Shown here: one piece after another, positions 48,250 to 62,347 of the stretch
Numbering within the stretch: position 1 is the stretch's first letter
How the letters are laid out: every line of letters begins with the position of its first letter
Made by a program: the position numbers and the translations under genes
DNA from: Nitrosopumilus sp.
GTDB taxonomy: Archaea > Thermoproteota > Nitrososphaeria > Nitrososphaerales > Nitrosopumilaceae
Direction: 5' to 3'
Assembly: GCA_963667665.2 (NCBI GenBank)
Contig: OY763927.2
Coordinates: 928,001-992,000, forward strand
Length of the DNA stretch: 64,000 nt
The notes under the pieces: generated by a model
What the model was told of the DNA's origin: nothing
Databases searched by the model: none
Seen by the model: only the letters and a program-made list of their open reading frames with translations

Positions 48250-48597
48250 ATGATGCGAACAAGACTAACATATGTACCACTAGAAGTAGCTGACCAATTC
48301 GAAGATTTCATCATAGAAAGAGATGTGCAAATACTTGATGCAGTAAAAGCAAGAACACGAGATTACAGTACACTATCACTGTTGAAGCTGTTGTATCAGC
48401 TTAGAGGAAATCCTATGACATTCTCAAATTTGTATTCAAAGTCAAAGATTAGAATGAAGAAATCATTTTTGAATTATCTACATCTGTGTGTGAATTACAA
48501 CTTTATCAAAAAAGAGCCAGTAGGGCCAAATGTAATCTATACAATTACAGACAAAGGACGAACTATGTTGAATCTCTTTATCAACAAAGAGTTGTAA
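48250..48597 (+). CDS. Winged-helix DNA-binding protein
   Basis: LLKLLYQL..PMTFSNLY..FLNYLHLC..FIKK..YTITDKGR wHTH pattern. Confidence 0.8.
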   Translation: MMRTRLTYVPLEVADQFEDFIIERDVQILDAVKARTRDYSTLSLLKLLYQLRGNPMTFSNLYSKSKIRMKKSFLNYLHLCVNYNFIKKEPVGPNVIYTITDKGRTMLNLFINKEL

Positions 48598-48646: not shown

Positions 48647-50341
48647 TTAATAGTAATGATGCATTTGTCTTTGTTCTAATCCTTCTTGCTCAAAGTGATT
48701 GTGAGACTTTCCACCATCATGATGAGCATGAACTACTCCATCAATATGACAATGGGTATTGTCAATCAAATTCTTCATGAACACATCATCTACATTCAGT
48801 ATCATGTTAGCAACTTCAACTGCAGTTTTGAAAACTTGTTGTTTAACAACTACTGTTTCAATAATGTCAGATGATGATACGTCAGATATCTTTCTAGTGT
48901 TAGAATTTATTCCATACCATCTTATCTTGCCATTCAATGTTGCAAATTTTGCTCGAAATTGTGTTAATGTATCTAACACATCCATTCCCACATTCTGTGC
49001 TAATGTTAATGGTATTTCATCTACAGCATCTGCAAATCTTTGTATTACAATTTGTTCCTTACCTTCAACAGTTACAGATTGCTTTCTAATTTTTTGTGCA
49101 ACTATTCCTTCAACAGAGCCAGCACCATATACAATGAATGGATGTTCAATGAAATTTCTTAATACATAAAATGCATTCAAAGCATTTCTGTGAAATTCAT
49201 CTAGAAATCGTTTTGAGTTGGCCCTCAATAACAAAGTTACAGATTTTGGATTGTTTCCACCTTCCACAAAAACCATTTTATCTCCACCTACAGTCTTCTC
49301 ATACACTCTTTTTGCAAAACCTAATTCATCGTTAGATATTTTCTCAATATTTTTACAGATCTCAGCACCAGTCGCCTTTTCTAGCCACCATAAATCATTG
49401 TACTTTACTCGCCGCATTGAGATAATACCATGTTTTGCAAGAGCTTCTTGAACAAACTCATTAACTCCTTTCCTAGATATTACGACATTAGCCCCCGAAT
49501 CTACAATATTTTTTACAAGTGCAAGTAAGTCTGTGTTTTCTTGGTTAAGGAATTGGTTCATCTGTTTGGGAGAGTCTATTTCTATCTCTGCCTCCGTTCT
49601 TGTTCTCATTGGTTCTAATGATTCATTAATTAACAGAATCTTGGCATTGTGAATAGTTCTAGGCATTGCAGAACTATCTATTGTTTTATCAATCACAGTA
49701 CCTTTGATCAATTGTATTTCTGTAGCATTTCCTATTTTTTCTTCAATTTTTATGTCATCAATATCTATCTGCCCTCTTTCCAAGTTGGCAATATCACATA
49801 CAGCCTCAATGATAATATCTACAATCTTTGTATTTTCTTCTTGTAAATCAAAAATTGCTTTTCCCTCTAAACATGTAGTTAGTAATTGTCGCATTATTTT
49901 TCTGTCTCTTCTGTTTGATTTTATCTTAATTTCATCCAATGTTTCTAAAGCACAATCTAAACTTTGATTATAACCGCGAGTAATTGTAGCAACAGGAATT
50001 CCAATTTTTAATAATTCTTCAGCATGTTTGAGTAAACTACCAATCAAAACAGCTGTAGATGTTGTACCATCTCCAACATGAGTATCAACGGTGTTAATAG
50101 ATTCTACAACTGATTTAGCTGCAGGATGATCAACATCAACTTTTCTCAAAAACGCACCACCGTGACTTGTAATTGTATCTTCTCCAAGTATGTCAATGTA
50201 TATTTTTTCCATACCGCGCGGACCAAGAGATGTTTTAACTATTTCCGTAACAAGTTTACCTGAAATTAAATTATACATTTGTGATTCTTGTAATCCAATA
50301 CGTGAAATATCTTGATCAAGTAAACCAGGGTATTTCATCAC
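48647..50341 (-). CDS. Divergent group II chaperonin (thermosome-like) with a His-rich C-terminus
   Basis: TSLGPRGM, HPAA, GDGTTS, LAQNVGMD, ILNVDD; tail THCHIDGVVHAHHDGGKSHNH..MHHYY. Confidence 0.88.
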   Translation of the reverse strand: MMKYPGLLDQDISRIGLQESQMYNLISGKLVTEIVKTSLGPRGMEKIYIDILGEDTITSHGGAFLRKVDVDHPAAKSVVESINTVDTHVGDGTTSTAVLIGSLLKHAEELLKIGIPVATITRGYNQSLDCALETLDEIKIKSNRRDRKIMRQLLTTCLEGKAIFDLQEENTKIVDIIIEAVCDIANLERGQIDIDDIKIEEKIGNATEIQLIKGTVIDKTIDSSAMPRTIHNAKILLINESLEPMRTRTEAEIEIDSPKQMNQFLNQENTDLLALVKNIVDSGANVVISRKGVNEFVQEALAKHGIISMRRVKYNDLWWLEKATGAEICKNIEKISNDELGFAKRVYEKTVGGDKMVFVEGGNNPKSVTLLLRANSKRFLDEFHRNALNAFYVLRNFIEHPFIVYGAGSVEGIVAQKIRKQSVTVEGKEQIVIQRFADAVDEIPLTLAQNVGMDVLDTLTQFRAKFATLNGKIRWYGINSNTRKISDVSSSDIIETVVVKQQVFKTAVEVANMILNVDDVFMKNLIDNTHCHIDGVVHAHHDGGKSHNHFEQEGLEQRQMHHYY

Positions 50342-50449: not shown

Positions 50450-52054
50450 CTACGTTACTTCCTTACTTGTAGCATCATCAGGTCCGGGTGTGTCAGGTCC
50501 TGGTGTATTAGAGCCAGGTCCACCTGCACTTGTCGCTGAAGTATCATTTTGGAAGTGTAACAAATCTTCTCCGGCAATTACATCTTCTTCAGGTGGTACA
50601 TAGTCGCGTACATCGTGTCTTGCTTTTCCTGGATACTTTCCTTGGGTTGCTTGTGCTACTATAAAGAACAAAGCAAATGCAATGATAGGAGGTATCATTG
50701 TATCCAATCCTGCCCATTCTTCTGGCATTGTAAAGAAGAATGCAAATCGAATTAGTGAACCAACAACAAGAGCTACAACGGCTGCGGGCATGTTTGCCTT
50801 TTTCCAGAACAAACCTAATGTGAGAGGAGCAAATGCTCCGGCAAAAACTATGTCAAATGCTAAGATGAGATAAATTCCAGGAGCTGGAACAAAGTAACCG
50901 ATAGCAGTTCCAACTATCATCATTGGAATAATTACAACACGAGTAACTTTGAGTAATTGACTATCACTCCAATTTGGTTTGCCCATCCATCGTCTTCGGA
51001 TAATTCTCTGCATCATATTTCTTGAAATTACACTGGAAATTGCCAATAGACCACCACTGGCAGTAGACATTGATGCTCCAACTACGCCCATTAGTATTGC
51101 TGCACCAATTGCAAATGGCAATACTTCTGTAGATAGTAAAGGTAAAGCCATGTTTGGATCAATATCTATTGGAAGATAGAAGAATGCTACAATTCCTAAC
51201 ATGCTAGTTGGAATTACTGTAAACATTGTAAGTGCGCCACCCATCAATGCACCTCTTTGTGCTGTTTTCGGGTTCTTAGCTGAAAATACTCGCTCCATAA
51301 AGTCAAGCGCAACGATATCTCCCAATCCTAGCGCAAGAATAGCACCCCAATTAATCAGCGCGCCATTAGCCATATCATACAATCCCGATAGATCCAAAAA
51401 CGCTGGTGGAGCGTTGTTGTAAATGACATCCCATGGAGTATCTGCAAAGCCACCATAGAAGAAAAGGAAACCAGCCCAAAATGCACCAATTGCAAGATAA
51501 ACTTGGAACAGATTTGTATAAGCCGATGCAAATAATCCTCCAGCAACTGTATAGATTACCACAACTATAGCTGAAATTGCAATACCATAGAAATAATTTA
51601 TACCAAACACAACTTCCAAAATAAATCCACTAGCTGCTAAATTGCCTGCAACAAGAATTAGAAAACTAACAATCATAAGAATGCCGGAAAGACCTTCTGC
51701 TCCATTTCCAAATCTTCTGAAATAGAAATCAGGTAATGTGATCATTGACATTTTGTTTAATGGTTTAGCATAGAATGCAGCTGTTACAAACAGACATAAT
51801 CCTAAACCAATTGGAATAACTGCTCCTGCCCAAAATCCAAATTCAAATACAAGAGCAACATTGCCTAACGATGAATTTCCATCAACTGCTTGAGCTGCAA
51901 GCATAGTTCCAACCATAAACAAAGGCAAACTTTTTCCTGCAATGATCAGTCGCTTACCACTATTTTTGACTAGTTTACCTGCAAATACCCCTACTGCAAG
52001 TGTAATGATAATAAATACGGCAACAGCGATGCCAAACCCATCCATCTCCACCAT
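50450..52054 (-). CDS. Sodium:solute symporter (SSS/SLC5), not DUR3 type
   Basis: AGKSLP, ITLPDFYFRRFG, YTVAGG, ERVFSAK, ASMST; about 13 TMs; lacks the DUR3 SAWTWAATLL signature. Confidence 0.9.
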   Translation of the reverse strand: MVEMDGFGIAVAVFIIITLAVGVFAGKLVKNSGKRLIIAGKSLPLFMVGTMLAAQAVDGNSSLGNVALVFEFGFWAGAVIPIGLGLCLFVTAAFYAKPLNKMSMITLPDFYFRRFGNGAEGLSGILMIVSFLILVAGNLAASGFILEVVFGINYFYGIAISAIVVVIYTVAGGLFASAYTNLFQVYLAIGAFWAGFLFFYGGFADTPWDVIYNNAPPAFLDLSGLYDMANGALINWGAILALGLGDIVALDFMERVFSAKNPKTAQRGALMGGALTMFTVIPTSMLGIVAFFYLPIDIDPNMALPLLSTEVLPFAIGAAILMGVVGASMSTASGGLLAISSVISRNMMQRIIRRRWMGKPNWSDSQLLKVTRVVIIPMMIVGTAIGYFVPAPGIYLILAFDIVFAGAFAPLTLGLFWKKANMPAAVVALVVGSLIRFAFFFTMPEEWAGLDTMIPPIIAFALFFIVAQATQGKYPGKARHDVRDYVPPEEDVIAGEDLLHFQNDTSATSAGGPGSNTPGPDTPGPDDATSKEVT

Positions 52055-52536: not shown

Positions 52537-53049
52537 GTGCCAGGAAAAGGATATTCTACATTTGGTATGAAACCTGTAATTACAACTAGATTACAAGAAG
52601 CAACAGACAAGAGTTATCCTGGAATGTTTCTTCCCAGTACATTAATTATCATAATGAATGAGATCAAGAGAGGATATTATTCAGTAGAATCACATAAAAT
52701 AAAATTAGATTTGTCTGGTAGATACAATACCATAACTATAAGATCAGATGTTAAAGAATGGTCAGTAGAAAATCATGAAAAACTTGGAAAAGATTATGAA
52801 GAAAGATACAATGTAAAATGCTTTACAAAATTTGTGAGTTATTTTATAGTTAACATGTTAGAATCAAAAAGTGATGCTCAAAACCATTCTATTAGTCTAA
52901 AGGAATTAGATTTCAGTTGGCTTCAAGATAAATATAAAAAACAAAAAAAGAGTCCTGAAGGAATTTCTAGTTTTGAACGATTTGCAGATAGTTACATTAA
53001 TGATTTACTGGTAAAGATTAAAGCGGCAAAAGAAATCTTAACATTATAA
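52537..53049 (+). CDS. Hypothetical protein (possible tandem ribbon-helix-helix-like units)
   Basis: 170-aa GTG ORF with a TATAAA box about 25 nt upstream. Confidence 0.7.
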   Translation: MPGKGYSTFGMKPVITTRLQEATDKSYPGMFLPSTLIIIMNEIKRGYYSVESHKIKLDLSGRYNTITIRSDVKEWSVENHEKLGKDYEERYNVKCFTKFVSYFIVNMLESKSDAQNHSISLKELDFSWLQDKYKKQKKSPEGISSFERFADSYINDLLVKIKAAKEILTL

Positions 53050-53082: not shown

Positions 53083-53334
53083 TTAAAGTGGTGTCATAGT
53101 ATCAATTAATCGTGCATTAACAACATGACAATCTTTTTCTTGTATTTCAAGGTCTACAGTATATTTCAAACCATCTAGCATGAAATTAACTTGAACATCC
53201 CAAGATACTCTAGGTCCTTTTTCAGGAACTTGGAATGTTTCATTCACTCTAAAGTCACTTACGTCACCATATAATGCATTGATTATTCTACGAGACTCTC
53301 TATCGATGTCTTCTGATGTGCTAACAGCCTGCAT
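53083..53334 (-). CDS. Small hypothetical protein
   Basis: 83-aa ATG ORF with a TTTATA box upstream. Confidence 0.7.
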   Translation of the reverse strand: MQAVSTSEDIDRESRRIINALYGDVSDFRVNETFQVPEKGPRVSWDVQVNFMLDGLKYTVDLEIQEKDCHVVNARLIDTMTPL

Positions 53335-53395: not shown

Positions 53396-54652
53396 TCATA
53401 ATTTTGTTAGTCTTTTTAAAAATGATTCTTTATTCATTTTGTCCAACTTTTCTTGAACTTTAAATCGATGAAAAATTGCAGTTTGATTTGTAGGTTCAAG
53501 TTCTAGTGCTTTGTTGTAACATTTTAGAGACTCTTCATATTTTTTTAATAATAAAAGTAATTTTCCTTTATAGCTTATTGCATAGACGTAATTAGGATTG
53601 ATTTTTAGTGCTTTTTCACAATATTCAAGCGCCTCATCATATTTTTTTGAGTGTTCTAGAAACCACACCATAGTGCATAACGCCAGTACATTTCTTGGTT
53701 CAATCTCCAAAGCACATTCAAAATAGAATCTTGCTTTACCAAATTTTTTCAACTGAAACAAAGATGTGCCTTTACTGTAAAGTGCCTTAACATTATCAGA
53801 GTCATATTCTAAAATTTTATCGAAACACTCTATGGCTTTTTTATATAGTCGTGTTCTATCCAAGACTATTCCTTTATTGAATTGAGCATCAGTACATTTA
53901 GGATCAATTTTTAGGGCGTCATCATAAAAAACAAAAATCTCTTTGTTTGAAAATCCTGCTAAATCAAGAGTCCATCCCTTAGCCACAAGAGCTTTAGTAT
54001 TTTTCTTATCTATCTCCAGAGCTTTTGTATAGAATTTTATTGCTTCTTCATGTTTTCCTTTCTTTGTACGCTTCTGTCCTTTTTCATATAGAATGTCTGA
54101 TTGTCTAGAATCTTCATCAATAGCTTTTTGTAAGAATAGCATGGACTCTGAACTTTTTGCTAATCTTCCCAGAATCAAACTTTTGGCGTAAAGAGCAGCC
54201 GAGTTTTTTGGATTATTCAATAAAACTTGATCAATTATTGTTATAGCCTCATCATTACGCTCTAATTTACTTAAACATAATCCCATAGATGTTAATGAAT
54301 CAGAATATTGTGAATCAATTTCAAGAGATTTTTTGAAAGAAGATATTGCTTCTTCGTATTTTTCTATTTTTTCAAGTGCAAGACCTTTGTTGTATAAAGC
54401 ATCAAGACTTTTGGGATCTATAGATAAAATTTTATCAAAACAAATTATAGCATTTTGAAAATCTTCCAATTTGTATAATGTCCTGCCTTTATGAAGTTGA
54501 GCTACAATGTTTTCAGGTTCAAGTGAAATAGCCTTGTTAAATTTTAAAACAGCTTTTTTAAATTGATTGTAATAAACTGCGGTTAATCCTTGATTTAAAA
54601 AATACCATGCATTTTTTGAATTTTGTAAAATCATATTGGTATTGTCACCCAA
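53396..54652 (-). CDS. Tetratricopeptide repeat protein (start possibly ATG 54634)
   Basis: About eleven 34-aa repeats of the A.Y.KG..L.....Y..A...F...L..DP type. Confidence 0.9.
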   Translation of the reverse strand: MGDNTNMILQNSKNAWYFLNQGLTAVYYNQFKKAVLKFNKAISLEPENIVAQLHKGRTLYKLEDFQNAIICFDKILSIDPKSLDALYNKGLALEKIEKYEEAISSFKKSLEIDSQYSDSLTSMGLCLSKLERNDEAITIIDQVLLNNPKNSAALYAKSLILGRLAKSSESMLFLQKAIDEDSRQSDILYEKGQKRTKKGKHEEAIKFYTKALEIDKKNTKALVAKGWTLDLAGFSNKEIFVFYDDALKIDPKCTDAQFNKGIVLDRTRLYKKAIECFDKILEYDSDNVKALYSKGTSLFQLKKFGKARFYFECALEIEPRNVLALCTMVWFLEHSKKYDEALEYCEKALKINPNYVYAISYKGKLLLLLKKYEESLKCYNKALELEPTNQTAIFHRFKVQEKLDKMNKESFLKRLTKL

Positions 54653-54792: not shown

Positions 54793-55908
54793 ATGGGCAT
54801 GGAATTTTATGGTGATGATTTTCAAGGTGCAGATGTTGCGCCATTTGTAGGAATTAATACATTTTTACATCTTCCTTGGGTAAAGACACACAAAGAATTA
54901 CTTGAAGCAAAACCAGACGTTGCAATTATTGGAGAGCCATTTGACTTTGGTACTACTATCCGCCCCGGAGCAAGATATGGGCCAAGAGCAATTAGAGCTG
55001 CATCTACAATTCCATCACCACCTTTTGAACGATTCAACATTGAAACGGGTGCAGACCCATTTGGAACTTTTCGAACAGTAGATTATGGAGACGTCATAGT
55101 TTCACCAGGGGATGTTATAGAATCACACAAGAGGATGACTCTAAAAGTTAAGGAAGTGTTAGAGGCAGATGGTATTCCTGTAATGCTTGGAGGAGATCAC
55201 TCAATTACTTATGCAAACGTTAGAGCATTTCAGAAAAAATACAAAAACATAGGCATGATTCATTTTGACACACACGCTGATTGTGCACCACAAGGACTAA
55301 CGGGTTTCAAGTATGATCATGGAGCACATATTAGAAGAATAATGGAGATGGGTTGTCTTAAAGGAAAGAACTACTCGCTTGTAGGTCCAAGAGGATATTG
55401 GCCAGGACGTGATTTGTACAAATGGATGTCAGACCAAGATTTCCAATGGTTTACAATGCTTGATGTTGAAGAATTAGGAATTGATGTTATTGCAAAAGAA
55501 ATAGCTGATAGAGCAAATGATGGAACAGATGCAGTCTATCTTAGTTGGGATATTGATTCTTTTGATCCTGCTTATGCACCAGGTACGGGAGAACCAGAAC
55601 CAAACGGACTTACATCAAGAGAAGGCATTAGAATGATTCGTCTATTATCAAAATCATTTGATCCTGATAGATTTGCAATGGATTTGGTAGAAATTGCTCC
55701 AGCATATGATGTCAGTGATTCAAGTTCTTACAACGGAGGAATCACATCTGGATTAGGACAAAGATTAGTTATTGAACTATTGGCAGGATTATCATTAACA
55801 AAGAGAGGTTTGGAGGGAGGAGATCCTGTAAGACCAAAGGCATACATGGGTACTGGAAACACATACAGTTTTGGTAATCCAACATCTAAAATTCCAAAGA
55901 GAGATTAA
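54793..55908 (+). CDS. Ureohydrolase (agmatinase/arginase superfamily), substrate unknown
   Basis: RPGARYGP, GGDHS, DTHAD, SWDIDSFDP, PGTGEPEPNG, VEIAP; all six metal ligands present. Confidence 0.92.
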   Translation: MGMEFYGDDFQGADVAPFVGINTFLHLPWVKTHKELLEAKPDVAIIGEPFDFGTTIRPGARYGPRAIRAASTIPSPPFERFNIETGADPFGTFRTVDYGDVIVSPGDVIESHKRMTLKVKEVLEADGIPVMLGGDHSITYANVRAFQKKYKNIGMIHFDTHADCAPQGLTGFKYDHGAHIRRIMEMGCLKGKNYSLVGPRGYWPGRDLYKWMSDQDFQWFTMLDVEELGIDVIAKEIADRANDGTDAVYLSWDIDSFDPAYAPGTGEPEPNGLTSREGIRMIRLLSKSFDPDRFAMDLVEIAPAYDVSDSSSYNGGITSGLGQRLVIELLAGLSLTKRGLEGGDPVRPKAYMGTGNTYSFGNPTSKIPKRD

Positions 55909-56303
55909 TGAAAATTGAAGTAGTGGTACAGGGAGATCCGGATATCAAGCCATTTACCAAGATATTTTATTATGAAAAATCTGATGAAACAATTTTCTTT
56001 GAATCCACACAATTAATCAAAAATCACCTATCAAACAATATGCGATTAAACATAAACGAGACACTAGGATTGTTTGTAGCTTATGTCATAACTTCGTTAA
56101 ATGAACGTAAAACAATCAACGAAATACAAAAACACATACCAGATATGCTTTTACCACATCAAGTGATGATTGGGGTTCCTGAAAGTTTGAGAAAACTAAC
56201 TTTTACAATTACAACCAAAGATATTGATAAAGAACAAATATTCATTACAACACCCATTCAAATTGTTCAATATTCTCTTGATGGACAGAAACAAACAGCA
56301 TAG
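55908..56303 (+). CDS. Urease gamma-subunit-like paralogue with an N-terminal extension
   Basis: RLNINET..ERKTINEI..LLPHQVMIGVPESL aligns by eye with Ure[30 protein letters not shown]. Confidence 0.7.
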   Translation: MKIEVVVQGDPDIKPFTKIFYYEKSDETIFFESTQLIKNHLSNNMRLNINETLGLFVAYVITSLNERKTINEIQKHIPDMLLPHQVMIGVPESLRKLTFTITTKDIDKEQIFITTPIQIVQYSLDGQKQTA

Positions 56304-56317
56304 GAGTAATGGAATAA

Positions 56318-57076
56318 TTGATTGAAACAATAATGGGAATGTTACAAGCCAACAACCCTTTTTTAATTATAATTGCTGGTTTGATGATTGGATTATTGCA
56401 TGCTTTTGAGCCTGATCATCTTAGTGCAGTTTCCACTCAACTATTAAAAAACAACAATAATTCAAAGAGTTCAAAAAAACGAGACTTGCAAAATCTTACC
56501 ATTATCTCTTCTTTAAGAGGAGCACTTTGGGGAATGGGACATACATCAAGTATTATTTTAATCGGACTATTGATTGCAGGTTTATCATTAAACATACCTG
56601 ATGATTTTTTTATTAGTGCAGAAGTGCTTGTTGGTTTAATGTTGATTACTTTAGCAATTTTTACATTTACAAACAAAAGTATCTTTAAACAAAAACATGT
56701 TCATCCTCACACACATTCAGACGGAATTTCTCACACACATTCTCATGAACATAATGAAAATCACAAACATGGTCACAAAGCATACCTAATTGGTTGTGTT
56801 CACGGTATTGCAGGTAGTGGTAGTCTTGTTGCATTATTTGCATCTACAATGAATGGTTTTGATATGATGATTTATTTTCTAATTTTATTTGGCATAGGCA
56901 GTATAATTGGTATGACTGTTGCTAGCGGCGTTATGGGATTACCATTTATTTTATTATCAAAAGTTAATTCTATTACTAAATATCTAAGATACACAATAGC
57001 TAGTATAACTTTCATAATTGGTCTTAATATTATAATTACAATTGGATTAGATAATAAATTATTTTCTTTAAACTAA
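56318..57076 (+). CDS. Nickel/cobalt transporter (UreH/NiCoT-like)
   Basis: GLLHAFEPDH, WGMGH, His-rich loop HVHPHTHSDGISHTHSHEH, GCVHGIAGSG. Confidence 0.88.
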   Translation: MIETIMGMLQANNPFLIIIAGLMIGLLHAFEPDHLSAVSTQLLKNNNNSKSSKKRDLQNLTIISSLRGALWGMGHTSSIILIGLLIAGLSLNIPDDFFISAEVLVGLMLITLAIFTFTNKSIFKQKHVHPHTHSDGISHTHSHEHNENHKHGHKAYLIGCVHGIAGSGSLVALFASTMNGFDMMIYFLILFGIGSIIGMTVASGVMGLPFILLSKVNSITKYLRYTIASITFIIGLNIIITIGLDNKLFSLN

Positions 57077-57095: not shown

Positions 57096-58808
57096 TTAAA
57101 ACAAATTGTATAGTCTTGACATAGAAACTTTGTCGGCAGGATCTGTTGTTGCAATTTTCCCATCAACTTTAACTTCATATGTTTCAGGATTTACCTCAAT
57201 GTTTGGAGTAAGATCATTATACAACATGTCTTTCTTTCCAATAGAACGGCAATTTTTCACAGGAACCAATTTCTTTTTTGAATTGATTTCAGATTCAATA
57301 CCCTTGTCTAGTGCCAGTTGAGATGTGAATGTTACAGAAGTGGAATATTTTGTTTGGCCAAGGGCTCCAAACATAGGACGATACATGACAGGTTCAGTAG
57401 TAGGAATTGATGCATTAGGATCACCCATAAGGGAATATGCAATAAAACCGCCTTTTATGATCATTTTTGGTTTGACTCCAAAAAATGCAGGGGACCAAAT
57501 TACAATATCAGCTAATCGTCCAGGCTGCAATGAGCCCACATAATCTGAAACTCCATGAGTTATGGCAGGATTTATTGTAATTTTAGCAAGATAACGCTTC
57601 ACTCTGAAATTATCATTTTGAGCATTGTCTTCAGGTAATGCACCAGCCATCTTTTTCATTTTATCAGCAGTCTGCCAATTTCTGGTTGTAACTTCTCCTA
57701 CTCTTCCCATAGCTTGACTATCAGAAGACATCATACTCAACACACCAATATCATGTAGTACATCCTCTGCAGCAATAGTCTCACCCCTAATTCTAGACAT
57801 TGCAAAGGAAACATCTTCAGGTACTGATGAGTTTAGATGATGGCAAACCATCATCATGTCAAGATGTTCTGCTAGTGTGTTTACTGTAAATGGTCTTGTA
57901 GGATTTGTAGATGAAGGAAGTATATTTTCTTCACCTGCAATTTTCATAATATCTGGAGCATGTCCACCTCCAGCACCTTCAGTATGATAAGTATGAATTG
58001 TTCTTCCTGCAATTGCTTCAATTGTGTCATCAACAAATCCACATTCATTTAGAGTATCAGTATGGATTGCAACTTGGGTATCAGTTTTGTCTGCAACCCT
58101 CAAAGCAGAATCAATCGTAGCAGGAGTTGTACCCCAATCTTCATGTAGTTTTAGTCCACAAGCTCCTGCTTCAATTTGTTCAAGTAATGCAGATTCACGA
58201 GAGTCATTTCCTTTTGCAAGAAATCCAAAGTTTAGTGGTAATTCATCAACAGACTCAATCATTCTATGAATATTCCATTTACCAGGAGTGCATGTTGTTG
58301 CATTTGTTCCATCAGCTGGACCAGTTCCACCGCCAATCATCGTGGTGGTACCATTACATATTGCATGTATTGCTTGTTGAGGAGAAATAAAATGAATATG
58401 TGAATCAATTGTTCCAGGAGTACAAATGGTATGCTCGCCGGCAATTATCTCAGTGTTAGAAGATATTACCATATCAATATCATCCATGATGTCAGGATTA
58501 CCAGCATTTCCTATTCCAACAATTTTTCCATCTTTTACTCCAATGTCTGCTTTGATAATTCCCAAAATAGGATCCATTACAATTGCGTTAGTAATTACAA
58601 GATCAAGTGATTCTGCTCTAGATACGCCACTTGCTTGCCCCTGCCCATCTCTTATGCTCTTTCCTCCTCCAAATACAGCCTCATCACCATACGTAGTCAA
58701 GTCTTTTTCAATTTCAATAATCAAATCAGTATCTGCAAGACGGATTCGGTCACCCACAGTAGGACCAAACAAATCAACATGTGTTTTTCTTGGAATATCT
58801 AGAGTCAT
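57096..58808 (-). CDS. ureC: Urease subunit alpha
   Basis: [56 protein letters not shown]. Confidence 0.99.
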
Positions 58809-59182
58809 TGGGTCATTCCTTTGAATCCTTTTTCAGTAGCTTTTTTGAATGCCTCTTCTTGCTTTTCTTCTAGACTTCCATTCACCAGTCCACTAAATCC
58901 ATAAACAATTTTTTTTCCTCCAAATTCCGTTAGTTCAATTTCTTTTGTATCTCCGGGTTCAAATCTAACTGATGTGCCGGCAGGAATATTGAGATGGTAT
59001 CCGTAAGATTGTTTCCTTTGAAATTCAAGAGCTTTGTTTACTTCAAAAAAGTGTGTATGTGATCCTACCTGTATTGGTCTATCTCCAGTATTTCTAACAC
59101 TAACAGATGTAGTTGATTTTCCTACGTTAGCAATGATAGGTTCATTAGATGAGAAGTATTCGCCAGGAATCATAGTTATCAC
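58805..59182 (-). CDS. ureB: Urease subunit beta
   Basis: [34 protein letters not shown]. Confidence 0.98.
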
Positions 59183-59481
59183 ACAATAGGGTCATGAATT
59201 GTTACAAGTTTAGTTCCATCTTCAAATGTTGCCTCCACTTGAATAGATGTAATTAATTCTACAACTCCAGGTAAAACATCATCTTTTGATAGAACATTTT
59301 TTCCAGAGCTCATAAGTTCCGGAACAGATCTTCCATCTCTTGCACCTTCTAAGATATGATCAGCAAGAATAGATACAGCTTCAGGATGATTAAGTTTCAA
59401 TCCACGATTTTTTCTTCTTCGAGCAAGTTCTGATGTAACAAAAACATTTAGTTTTTCTAATTCTCTAGGAGTAAGCATCAT
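59179..59481 (-). CDS. ureA: Urease subunit gamma
   Basis: [35 protein letters not shown]; start moved to 59481. Confidence 0.98.
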
Positions 59482-59566
59482 TGAATTGGATAGTGTATCA
59501 GAGTATTTAATCATTAAAACGGTAAAATCTAACAAAGTATAACTCTGTCAAAAAACAAAGTTACTT

Positions 59567-60052
59567 GTGTTAGAAGTTAATTCCCCTATAGGAAATATTT
59601 TTCATGATAAAGAATTTGATAATTTGAAAAATGAGAATTTTGAAAGACTCAAGATTTCCCGAATTGAATTAGAAAAAAGAATTTTGAGAAGAAAGACAGA
59701 TCGAGGAACAGATATTGGTTTGAATTTAGACCCAGGAGTGAAACTTTGCAATGGAGATATTATCAAAAATGGAGATACAAAAATTGTTGTGGAGCAATTA
59801 CCAGAAAAAATAATTACAGTTAAACTAAAAAATGAAAAGATGACAGATGTAATGGTGCTGTTAGGGCACATCATTGGAAACAGACACAGACCGATATCCA
59901 TTCAAGGAGATGAGATTTCATTTCCAATTCAAGCAGATTCAGAAAAGGAAATATTTACAAAATTATTTCAGAGCATTATCAACCATATCAACATTACAGT
60001 AGAAGAACAGATATTTTCCCCTCAATTAGGTGCAGATGTACATGAACATTGA
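59567..60052 (+). CDS. ureE: Urease accessory protein UreE
   Basis: GHIIGNRH; short VHEH tail. Confidence 0.93.
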   Translation: MLEVNSPIGNIFHDKEFDNLKNENFERLKISRIELEKRILRRKTDRGTDIGLNLDPGVKLCNGDIIKNGDTKIVVEQLPEKIITVKLKNEKMTDVMVLLGHIIGNRHRPISIQGDEISFPIQADSEKEIFTKLFQSIINHINITVEEQIFSPQLGADVHEH

Positions 60053-60743
60053 CGAGATAGAACAAGAGTTAGGGGTAATGCAGTTATCTGACTCATTTTT
60101 TCCTACAGGTATTTTTGCTACTTCAAATGGATTAGAATTTCTTTTCACAGAAAAAAAAATTCAAGATATGGCAGACTTGATAGAAATTATCAGAATTAAC
60201 ATTACTCAGCAGATAGGACCATCAGATTGTGTTGCACTTGCAAATGCATTTGATAGTGCAAACAAATGTGATTTTGAAAAAGTGATTGAAGTAGACAATA
60301 TTGCTTTTGCCACTAAATCAATTAAAGAAATACGCAATTCATCAGTAAGATCGGGGGTTCAATTAGTAAAATGTGTTTCAGAATTTATAACAGATGATGA
60401 AATTTTAAATCAATACAAAAACAACATAACAAAAAACAATGCACATGGGATATTTCCTGTGGCATTTGCAATTTGTTGTAATGCATTAAAAATTAAAAAA
60501 GAAAAAAGCATGACGATGTTATTGTATGGTTTTACTGTTGGGGTTGTAGGTGCAGCATTACGATTAGGATTAATTCAACATTTTGAAGGTCAAAAAATAA
60601 TTCACAATATAAAACCAATCATCAGTCAAACTATCAAAGAATATTCTAATGAATCACTTTTTGAAATGTGGCAATTTGCACCCCAAATAGATATTGTTCA
60701 AATGTCACATGAAAAAATGGATTCAAAAATGTTTATTACATAA
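60042..60743 (+). CDS. ureF: Urease accessory protein UreF
   Basis: [21 protein letters not shown]....KMFIT. Confidence 0.95.
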
Positions 60744-60760
60744 AAATTAGATTTTTCATC

Positions 60761-61417
60761 ATGACTCACATCGCAAGAATCGGTATTGGTGGACCAGTTG
60801 GTTCTGGTAAAAGCATGTTAATTGAACGCTTGGTGCCAATGTTGGCTGAAAAGGGATACAGTGTAAGTATAATCTCAAATGATGTGATTTCAAAAGAAGA
60901 TGCTGACAGAATGAGGGATAATTTAGCTACGAAAAAAGGACTACTTCCAGAAAATTTAGTGATTGGTCTTGCAACTGGCGGTTGTCCACATACTGCAATC
61001 AGAGAAGATCCTTCCATGAATCTTGCAGTAATAGAAGAAATAGAATCAGAGCATCCTGATCTTGACCTTATAATTATTGAAAGTGGAGGAGATAACATTA
61101 CAACTACATTCAGTCCCATTCTTGCAGATTATTCTATTTACATAGTTGATGTTGCAGGAGGAGACAAGTATCCAAGAAAAGGCGGATTAGGAATTGAGAG
61201 TTGTGATCTTTTAGTAATTAACAAGATAGATCTTGCCATGATGGTTGGAGCAGACCTTGATATCATGAAAAGAGATGCAGAAAAGATTAGAAAAGAAAAA
61301 CCATTTGAATTTATCAATTGTAAAACAGATGAAGGTATAATGAAGATAACTGAACACATTATTCATGATGTCTTGTTTGATTCTGCACCAAAATCAGAAC
61401 TTACACAAAAGGTGTGA
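60761..61417 (+). CDS. ureG: Urease accessory GTPase UreG
   Basis: [32 protein letters not shown]. Confidence 0.98.
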
Positions 61418-61420
61418 TTA

Positions 61421-62347
61421 TTGAATAAACTAGAATACTACACACCAAATGACATACCAAAAGAAATTCAGACATATGATTCAGAAATAAAACAATTAGG
61501 AGTTGGAAAATCAGGAAAAGTAGGCATTCTTGATTTGGAACTTCAAAAAAACAGTAATGGTAAAACAGTTGTTACAAAACAATTTTCTCAAGTTCCGTTA
61601 CAATTTCAACGAGCATTATATCCTGAAAACTCACTTCCTGAAATGGCATATCTTTATGTTATTTCTCCATCAGGAGGAGTTCTACAAGGGGATAGATACA
61701 GAATGGATGTGTCATTAAAAAATAAGGCCATCGCTCATATGACAACTCAAGGTGCCACTAGCATCTACAGTATGGATTCAAATTTTGCATCACAAATTGT
61801 AAACATCACACTTGATGAGAATTGTTATTTAGAATACATCCCTGATCAAATAATACCAAACAAGAATTCCAGGTATTATCAAAAAGTTAATCTGAATATT
61901 CACGATAATGCAACTTTGGTATATTCAGAAATTTTAACTCCTGGAAGAGTAGCCATGGATGAATCTTTTGAATATGATATTTGTTACCTAAGAACACACT
62001 GTAAGAACCAAGACAAAAAAATAAGGTTTTTAGAAAATACAAAAATTGAGCCAAAAAAACAAAAATTAAAAAATTTTGGAATATTAGGCAAATACAACAC
62101 AGTTGGAACAGTTTACATCTTGACTAGAAAAGAAAATGTAATTGAACTAGAAAATTCAATAAATGAAAGAATCAAAAAGACAGATGCAATGTCTATTGGA
62201 ACATCCATTCTTCCAGATGAATCCGGAATAGTCATCAGAATTTTAGGAGATAAGACAGATAATATTTCTGATGTAATTTTCAAGATACTTGAAATTAGTA
62301 GAAAGAAAATTCTTGGTGCATCAATTAGTAAAATAAGAAAAAACTAG
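61421..62347 (+). CDS. ureD: Urease accessory protein UreD
   Basis: SPSGGVLQGD, TTQGAT, LEYIPD, PGRVAMDESF. Confidence 0.95.
   Translation: MNKLEYYTPNDIPKEIQTYDSEIKQLGVGKSGKVGILDLELQKNSNGKTVVTKQFSQVPLQFQRALYPENSLPEMAYLYVISPSGGVLQGDRYRMDVSLKNKAIAHMTTQGATSIYSMDSNFASQIVNITLDENCYLEYIPDQIIPNKNSRYYQKVNLNIHDNATLVYSEILTPGRVAMDESFEYDICYLRTHCKNQDKKIRFLENTKIEPKKQKLKNFGILGKYNTVGTVYILTRKENVIELENSINERIKKTDAMSIGTSILPDESGIVIRILGDKTDNISDVIFKILEISRKKILGASISKIRKN

Follow-up and report, generated by a model that had tools for sequence, protein, structure and literature searches.

Ammonia-oxidising archaea are among the most abundant microbes of the ocean and of soils, and their use of organic nitrogen shapes nitrification. 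The DNA analysed here (the window, to which positions refer unless stated otherwise) is a stretch of 64,000 nucleotides from Nitrosopumilus sp. (assembly GCA_963667665.2, contig OY763927.2, positions 928,001 to 992,000 of the forward strand), part of a genome of 1.89 Mb with about 33% G+C and three group II chaperonin genes. Two of these are housekeeping thermosome copies. The third, here called cpn3, is a non-housekeeping thermosome-like gene in the urea gene neighbourhood of the window and, judging from its conserved residues and gene partners, probably a dedicated helper for the metal enzymes of the urea gene set. An earlier reading of the window (the first-pass annotation) had described it as a repurposed chaperonin with lost catalytic residues and a His-rich tail, possibly acting as nickel store or folding cage for urease or the ureohydrolase. 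The parts of the gene in question are the following.

48647..50341, minus strand: cpn3, third group II chaperonin paralogue, 564 aa from GTG
50162..50164, minus strand: H60 codon (Mm-cpn D60 position), placed by alignment
49175..49192, minus strand: HRNALN, residues 384-389; H384 replaces the Glu of 'ER' and N389 the catalytic Asp
49175-49177, minus strand: N389 codon (Mm-cpn D386 position), placed by alignment
48650..48763, minus strand: tail, residues 527-564, DNTHCHIDGVVHAHHDGGKSHNHFEQEGLEQRQMHHYY, where the housekeeping paralogues have a Gly-Met tail

A group II chaperonin with an altered ATP site and a conserved His-rich tail

The open reading frame (ORF) of cpn3 starts with GTG and has an ATG one codon downstream (50336-50338), which is probably the true start because most orthologues are 563 aa long. 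The predicted protein matches Pfam Cpn60_TCP1 (PF00118) over residues 31-522 (3.6e-134; 448.5 bits, cut-off 34.3) and exceeds the cut-offs of the NCBIfam models thermosome_alpha (NF041082; 491.1 vs 450 bits) and thermosome_beta (483.1 vs 400 bits), while falling below the stricter cut-off of TIGR02339 (481 vs 671). The best GroEL model reaches 51.7 bits against a cut-off of 352, which places the protein outside group I. Comparison with solved group II chaperonins by HMMER gave E-values of 1e-105 to 1e-111, and residues 3-522 align to residues 3-517 of Mm-cpn (PDB 5w79) with small gaps only. An AlphaFold2 (AF2) model built from a 43-row alignment (mean pLDDT 84.9, pTM 0.81) predicts a complete group II chaperonin fold, ordered over residues 1-523 and including helix 258-282 as the built-in lid segment; residues 524-564 have a pLDDT below 50, and the tail is predicted to be disordered.

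Housekeeping thermosomes (Mm-cpn, 5w79 and 3kfb, and the two copies of this genome, 41-43% identical to cpn3) share with cpn3 the length and domain order, the GPxGxxK and GDGT motifs, the loop lysine Lys161 and a G-x-G near 406-408. Unlike them, cpn3 has His for D60, Asn for D386, His for the Glu of 'ER' and a 38-residue His tail for the Gly-Met tail, and is confined to genomes with the ureohydrolase module described below. The two housekeeping copies have ITNDGATIL, either ERSVHDAL or DRSIHDAL, and a Gly-Met tail, whereas cpn3 reads ITSHGGAFL, GDGTTS and FHRNALNAF, so that the TSHGGAFL and HRNALNA readings of the first-pass annotation, and its statement that GDGTTS is kept, are correct in the ORF. 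In gap-free rows of the HMMER alignment, counted by hand, H60 sits on Mm-cpn D60 and N389 on Mm-cpn D386, and the housekeeping copies have Asp at both places. The catalytic Asp pair is thus replaced in the cpn3 of the window, as had been proposed; according to the first-pass annotation, position 60 corresponds to GroEL D52.

Both replacements are fixed among close relatives. A scan of one genome per species yielded 80 loci with relatives 52-96% identical to cpn3, of which 74 were full-length after exclusion of six partial ones; H60 occurs in all 74, N389 in 73 (Ser in the remaining one) and GDGT in all 74. A second branch of cpn3 is found in another ammonia-oxidising family (f14), which we take to be the soil group, the chaperonins of the two families being 45-48% identical. 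An alignment of the paralogue family comprised 27 rows from the same family as the window (Nitrosopumilaceae) and 11 from the soil family. Position 60 is His in 27/27 same-family rows and Asp in 9/11 soil-family and 5/5 housekeeping or outgroup rows; N389 is found in 26/27 same-family rows, and Asp at 389 in 9/11 soil-family rows. Most soil-family members (9/11) therefore retain both aspartates, and the Asp loss, noted earlier for the protein of the window, characterises the Nitrosopumilaceae branch without defining the family. Scattered single changes do occur (D60S in loci L091 and L103, D60N in L107, Ser at 389 in L100 and L101), and His for the Glu of 'ER' is family-wide (37/38 rows).

Other positions of the nucleotide site have drifted in the H60/N389 branch, with T94 retained in 10/27 rows vs 9/11 in the soil family and G407 in 12/27 vs 11/11. 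K46, D91, G92, T93 and K161 are kept in cpn3, and G40, P41, G43, K46, D91, G92, T93, G406, G408 and E411 are invariant in all 43 alignment rows, a pattern that makes nucleotide binding by the protein plausible. The Mm-cpn mutant D386A is reported to bind ATP without hydrolysing it and to stay in the open state (PMC5019054); the same position is changed in cpn3, which differs from the mutant in being natural and fixed, in having Asn and not Ala, and in the additional D60H.

The last 45 residues of cpn3 contain nine His and one Cys, as the first-pass annotation had counted, and the tails of 74/74 full-length orthologues hold 7-10 His and one Cys. Across the two families the tail follows the pattern THxHxDGTxHxH..G...HxHF[DE]..G..QR..HHYY, a near-invariant peptide of 38 residues with four His pairs. 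Pairwise identity is higher in the tail than in the body, both within the 27 same-family sequences (0.89 vs 0.60) and across both families (0.72 vs 0.54), and only 3/98 body windows of equal length match the value of the tail, starting at residues 36, 41 and 56 and all belonging to the nucleotide-site segment. In a search of 1.84 billion cluster representatives, the match extended into the tail for only three proteins, P0122, P0123 and the partial P0139, and the tail-bearing family is therefore compact; P0123 and the members from the second family have the same tail pattern. A word-based search with the tail region against shorter proteins found no stand-alone tail protein: its 49 hits were PF00118 carriers or very short sequences with 76% identity or more to the query tail, and thus fragments of the same chaperonin. 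Among the 6642 six-frame ORFs of the genome that reach 60 aa or more, there are just two matches to the strict form H.H.DG..H.H, one in the tail of cpn3 and one in a loop of the membrane protein of the module. Outside the window, a small protein with the N-terminal His-rich extension HGHSHNDGTEPHSHDGSEPHEHSH (G000:C1:1661715-1662083, plus strand) is the only further sequence of the genome that loosely fits the tail motif; by eye, it may be a PDCD5-like DNA-binding protein. In the soil genomes G335, G355 and G367, the chaperonins (L128, L126 and L127, respectively) gained a second, internal His-rich insert, with 14-16 His per 40 residues, just before GDIDIKLG.AERV, the tail being also present.

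In a quick maximum-likelihood tree of 48 rows with SH-aLRT support, all 32 tail-bearing rows form one clade apart from the housekeeping copies (support 100, stem 1.02), within which the 19 H60/N389 rows form one subclade (support 100, stem 0.41). The tree thus places the tail as ancestral and the double Asp loss as a single event at the base of the Nitrosopumilaceae branch. With its separate clade and strongly constrained tail, the interpretation of cpn3 as a repurposed group II chaperonin paralogue holds, and its conservation pattern marks a conserved state, not decay.

Gene neighbourhood and phyletic distribution

The following genes accompany cpn3 in the window.

50450..52054, minus strand: sodium:solute symporter (SSS) family transporter, directly upstream of cpn3 on the same strand with a gap of 108 bp (Pfam SSF 1.6e-27)
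52537..53049, plus strand: protein of 170 aa that matched no family and stays with the module in both families
53396-54652, minus strand: TPR protein
54793..55908, plus strand: arginase-family ureohydrolase, an extra paralogue (Pfam Arginase 1.4e-79)
55908..56303, plus strand: urease-gamma-like protein, 131 aa, whose start overlaps the ureohydrolase stop
56318..57076, plus strand: 252-aa membrane protein, putative Ni/Co permease, with HAFEPDH at 56399-56419 and a His-rich loop at 56687-56779
57096..59535, minus strand: ureC, ureB, ureA
59567..62347, plus strand: ureE, ureF, ureG, ureD

Gene content and order identify a predicted module made up of the SSS transporter, the ureohydrolase, the urease-gamma-like protein, the His-loop membrane protein and cpn3, with urease usually nearby. 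Of the related loci, 39 have at least 9 kb of flanking sequence on each side; 38 of them contain the SSS gene, 38 the 170-aa gene, 36 the ureohydrolase, 35 the membrane protein and 30 the gamma-like gene; ureC, which in the window lies 6.8 kb from cpn3, is found within 10 kb in 13. Of the 68 loci with the SSS gene, 40 have it directly upstream of cpn3 and in the same direction. A T-rich run in the 108 bp that separate the SSS stop from the cpn3 start, and TTTTAATA after it, some 25 nt ahead of the start codon, hint at a separate cpn3 promoter. All ten soil-family loci fetched have cpn3 tail to tail with an operon of ureohydrolase and gamma-like gene, with the SSS gene adjoining; the 170-aa gene stands beside the SSS gene in 7/10, and ureABC adjoins cpn3 in 7/10, its UreC being of the first of two types (76-79%). 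The 170-aa protein is 49-53% identical between the two families, the ureohydrolase 78-82%, UreC 76-79% and the chaperonin 45-48%.

The module ureohydrolase, one of three arginase-family genes in the genome, contains the motifs GGDHS, DTHAD and DIDSFD and has a mean column identity of 89% over 20 rows; a C-terminal extension of about 45 residues is also conserved. Its best PDB relative is the guanidinobutyrase 3nio (4e-50), followed by 7esr/7oi1 and 9fek, with metformin hydrolase lower. The structures 7oi1 and 9fek represent nickel-containing guanidinases, and guanidine-degradation genes have been reported absent from ammonia-oxidising archaea (Palatinszky et al., PMC11410670); metformin hydrolase is nickel-dependent according to published abstracts. 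One soil-genome arginase-family gene (G367:C80:7364-8473) has an in-frame TAG. The urease-gamma-like protein scores 28.3 bits against the Pfam Urease_gamma cut-off of 23.9 and aligns end to end with the UreA of the window at 15% identity; its gene keeps its place after the ureohydrolase in both families. The membrane protein has HAFEPDH near its N-terminus and the loop KQKHVHPHTHSDGISHTHSHEHNENHKHGHK, which contains HTHSDGISHTH. H-x4-D-H and a density of 11-13 His per 40 residues are conserved in each of its 45 distinct orthologues, and weak hits link the protein to the His-rich parts of DmeF, RcnA, UreE and HypB.

The distribution of cpn3 was determined in 251 Nitrosopumilaceae genomes with a completeness of at least 85%. 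A match was called as cpn3-type at 50% identity or more and when reaching residue 564; housekeeping copies remain at 45% or less and end near residue 521. The split was clean, with a cpn3-type match in 81/251 genomes, always accompanied by two housekeeping copies. The SSS gene occurs in 83/251. Co-occurrence was as follows, given without probabilities, since related genomes are not independent.

cpn3 and ureC: both 80; cpn3 only 1 (G096, 85% complete); ureC only 37; neither 133
cpn3 and the arginase-family ureohydrolase: both 80; cpn3 only 1; ureohydrolase only 4; neither 166
cpn3 and the SSS gene (G015 counted as cpn3-positive): both 81; cpn3 only 1; SSS only 2

The four genomes with ureohydrolase only are all fragmented assemblies, and one of them, G015, does have a cpn3 of the H60 type, located on the same contig. 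The counts include seven genomes flagged as unpublished, two (G188, G086) being positive for all four genes and five (G198, G171, G210, G071, G072) lacking a cpn3-type match; dropping all seven leaves the pattern unchanged. The module is thus nested within urease-positive genomes. The reverse does not hold: 37/117 ureC-positive genomes are without cpn3, including the closed, 98-99% complete genomes G035, G123, G172 and G189, which have two thermosome matches only and a UreC 87-93% identical to that of the window. The same is seen in tallies of ureohydrolase vs ureC by genus (10 vs 19 of 51 genomes in g1, 3 vs 13 of 18 in g22, 0 vs 3 of 3 in g12). The co-occurrence with ureC that the first-pass annotation had put forward as a check therefore bears out a link to the urease and ureohydrolase neighbourhood, but not urease as the tight partner. 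In the soil family, cpn3 occurs in 22/49 genomes (18 plain, three with the internal insert and one split over two contigs), the same 22 that have the ureohydrolase, while ureC occurs in 43/49; 22/43 ureC-positive genomes have no cpn3, and G355 has cpn3 with no ureC hit. The UreC linked to cpn3 in this family is a distinct type, 77-79% identical to that of the window vs 66-69% for the other type. G307, G318 and G377 carry cpn3 and the ureohydrolase with only the other UreC type, non-adjacent. Both types are present together in the soil genomes G333, G353, G361 and G371.

Candidate function and competing explanations

We favour, with middling confidence, the explanation that cpn3 is a module-dedicated, ATPase-impaired chaperonin with a metal-binding tail, for which the ureohydrolase, as the partner with the tightest phyletic association, would be the likelier client, and urease would come second. 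Chaperonin termini point into the cavity. The tails of cpn3 would accordingly project into the cavity of the ring and bind a divalent metal, most likely nickel, which is favoured because the permease-like protein of the module has the same HxHxDGxxHxH motif and the module contains or feeds nickel enzymes. The ring would then hold a newly made metalloenzyme of the module during folding, assembly or metal uptake. The Nitrosopumilaceae form may bind ATP and hardly hydrolyse it, serving as a holdase or a metal scaffold, or else joining housekeeping subunits in mixed rings as a non-catalytic member. The restriction of the module to urease-positive genomes could reflect a need for urease to process urea as the product of the ureohydrolase; alternatively, the ureohydrolase might borrow the nickel machinery of urease, with the gamma-like protein as a possible adaptor. 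A complex prediction of the ureohydrolase with tail residues 515-564 scored 0.00, which counts neither for nor against binding.

Several observations weigh against this explanation or weaken parts of it. Co-occurrence establishes that cpn3 is a member of the module, not which member it touches, and the tree comes from a quick method and has a long stem. The guanidinobutyrase 3nio is a manganese enzyme, and manganese is a poor ligand for His-rich peptides. For the membrane protein, no family cut-off is reached (Pfam DsbD_2, 20.8 vs 24.9 bits), its H-x4-D-H is what we take to be a Ni/Co permease signature, and the strict motif is found in just 15/45 of its orthologues, most others having Asn for Asp. 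Four of seven genomes of the family f3 have a 72-74% identical ureohydrolase directly beside ureC and no tail-bearing chaperonin, and the enzyme can therefore exist without cpn3. Ten genomes of the family f8 were sampled: the two with urease each have a tail-less, highly divergent Hsp60 homologue, and none of the ten yielded an arginase-family gene of this kind. Furthermore, cpn3 is divergent from ureABC over a short spacer in 5/10 soil loci, an arrangement that a urease link would fit equally well, and the distinct UreC type associated with cpn3 could likewise argue for a tie to urease.

These last points lead to the main competitor, in which the ring folds or stabilises urease and the tail supplies its nickel, with the ureohydrolase and the transporter as fellow travellers of the same island. 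This was proposed in part by Abby et al. (2018), who suggested urease stabilisation (PMC5797428), and by the first-pass annotation. It draws on the presence of ureC in 80/81 cpn3-positive Nitrosopumilaceae genomes, on the adjoining ureABC of the soil family with its divergent pairing and its own UreC type, and on the separate chaperonin homologue inside the f8 urease operon. Against it stand the many urease carriers without cpn3 in both families, closed genomes among them, the three soil genomes in which cpn3 and the ureohydrolase persist with only the non-adjacent UreC type, and G355. The shortness of UreE, invoked earlier in favour of a role for cpn3, lends no help: the local UreE does end in ...VHEH and UreG does lack a His tract, but UreE ends in this or a similarly short way whether cpn3 is present (25 distinct loci) or absent (5/5), and no compensating His-rich UreE was found in the five cpn3-free genomes. 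On balance, we consider urease as the dedicated client unlikely. Alternatively, cpn3 could be a non-catalytic specificity subunit of housekeeping thermosome rings, adding client selectivity and the His tail, for which the low-activity subunits of eukaryotic CCT offer a parallel. The degraded ATP site, the well-conserved equatorial and intermediate domains (the ten invariant positions listed above) and the constant company of two housekeeping copies would suit such a role. However, at its low identity to those copies and with its long stem, ring contacts may have drifted, and most soil-family members keep the catalytic residues and could run a ring of their own; we consider this reading unlikely as well.

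Two further explanations dispense with the module or with function altogether. A general chaperonin for stress, pressure adaptation or metal buffering (copper, for example), with no tie to the urea module, would be in line with the heavy copper dependence of ammonia oxidisers. It would also agree with the extra thermosome of a hadal genome (Zhong et al. 2020, PMC7265257) and with the His-rich tail of mycobacterial GroEL1, linked to copper (PMC10170517, 10.1101/766162). Yet, to judge from record titles, cpn3 carriers come not only from marine samples but also from groundwater, Lake Baikal, the Caspian Sea, soils and sponge symbionts, a habitat range too wide for adaptation to hadal pressure, which was rejected; moreover, the near one-to-one association with the ureohydrolase and SSS genes, which cpn3 adjoins in two families, leaves only a slim chance for a role of this general kind. 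As for a decaying paralogue, a pseudogene in the making, the loss of both catalytic aspartates and the drift of P-loop positions might suggest it, but full-length open frames in 81/251 genomes with no internal stops listed, replacement residues that are fixed (H60 in 27/27 rows, N389 in 26/27) and a tail that is the most conserved part of the protein contradict it, as does the confident AF2 model, and it is scarcely credible.

Returning to the module-dedicated chaperonin, a bolder version can be formulated, which we put forward as doubtful. Here cpn3 would be a hybrid of folding cage and metallochaperone: eight or nine tails facing the cavity would take nickel from the His-loop permease, which has the same motif, and load it into the caged ureohydrolase, no ATP hydrolysis being needed in the marine family. 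The module would thereby support the nitrification of guanidino compounds. If true, this would amount to a nickel-dependent route from an imported guanidino compound through urea to ammonia in many ammonia-oxidising archaea, and to a class of nitrification substrate not yet credited to them.

Known systems and adjoining reading frames

The gene, its rough location and its linkage to urease are already known. Abby et al. (2018) described an Hsp60 homologue in the urease loci of a thermophile and of the soil group; according to the authors, none was found in Nitrosopumilales (PMC5797428). Zhong et al. (2020) reported a phylogenetically distinct extra thermosome beside symporter and urease genes in the hadal genome MTA1, for which pressure adaptation was suggested (PMC7265257). 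The soil-group Hsp60, the MTA1 thermosome and cpn3 almost certainly belong to the same gene family. The passages of both papers that deal with these genes make no mention of a His tail, of Asp replacements or of a link to the ureohydrolase, and the three features are undescribed in the open papers and preprints searched, in the parts available to us; figure S7 of Zhong et al. and figure 4 of Abby et al. may show more. What the searched literature did not contain is a defined tail motif, a fixed natural D60H and D386N lesion with Asp-keeping sisters, a nearly one-to-one link with the genes for ureohydrolase and SSS transporter, and a motif common to the chaperonin and the permease-like protein.

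The Hsp60 homologue of the f8 urease operon is a different protein from cpn3, tail-less, 28% identical, with Asp kept, and falls outside the cpn3 clade on a branch of length 3.75, its placement being unsure. In G257 it is a protein of 516 aa encoded between ureC and ureE (L125 1459-3009, minus strand, on G257:C1) that keeps NDG and GDGTTT. The f8 case seems to be another, separate instance in which a chaperonin is associated with urease, and f8 is presumably the thermophilic group of Abby et al. (2018).

His-rich tails are also found among bacterial chaperonins. One is carried by the GroES protein HspA of Helicobacter pylori. Like cpn3, HspA and mycobacterial GroEL1 are paralogues with a His-rich peptide that replaces or extends the ordinary C-terminus; the peptides of the two bacterial proteins bind metal, and abstracts describe GroEL1 as a non-essential paralogue beside a housekeeping copy with a Gly-Met tail. 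Both are bacterial group I proteins whereas cpn3 belongs to group II, so that the likeness is one of function, not of descent; in addition, cpn3 has a fixed tail motif with conserved non-His residues in place of a loose run of His, and is part of an enzyme-specific module. The guanidinase GdmH, whose structures 7esr and 7oi1 rank second among the PDB relatives of the module ureohydrolase, is an arginase-family enzyme that needs nickel together with nickel-loading chaperones, said to be HypA/HypB-like (PMC11410670). These loaders set a precedent, although they belong to protein families unrelated to cpn3.

Within this frame, cpn3 marks a conserved module hitherto read as a urease cluster plus a urea transporter, in which an extremely conserved ureohydrolase is encoded together with a gamma-like partner of its own, a chaperonin and a permease-like protein. 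To the study of chaperonins it adds a naturally occurring group II member that combines a fixed lesion of the D386 type with a defined tail of the metal type, and whose Asp-keeping sisters are built-in controls; for the maturation of metalloenzymes, it suggests a testable example of metal handling by a folding cage.

Two small ORFs lie close to these genes. One of 115 aa (48250-48597, plus strand), just downstream of cpn3 on the opposite strand, has weak winged-helix hits and was found in 2/80 related loci, and is thus not a member of the module. The other, of 83 aa (53083-53334, minus strand), has no family match. In four metatranscriptome runs of one study, RNA contigs of at least 99% identity leave uncovered the body of the chaperonin gene (48855-50178), the TPR gene and the greater part of the gene for the membrane protein; as such contigs cannot show absence and DNA may be present in RNA libraries, nothing follows from them on the expression of cpn3. 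The contigs at this identity do cover the SSS gene, the ureohydrolase, a Na/Ca exchanger and both small ORFs, the 83-aa ORF in all four libraries.

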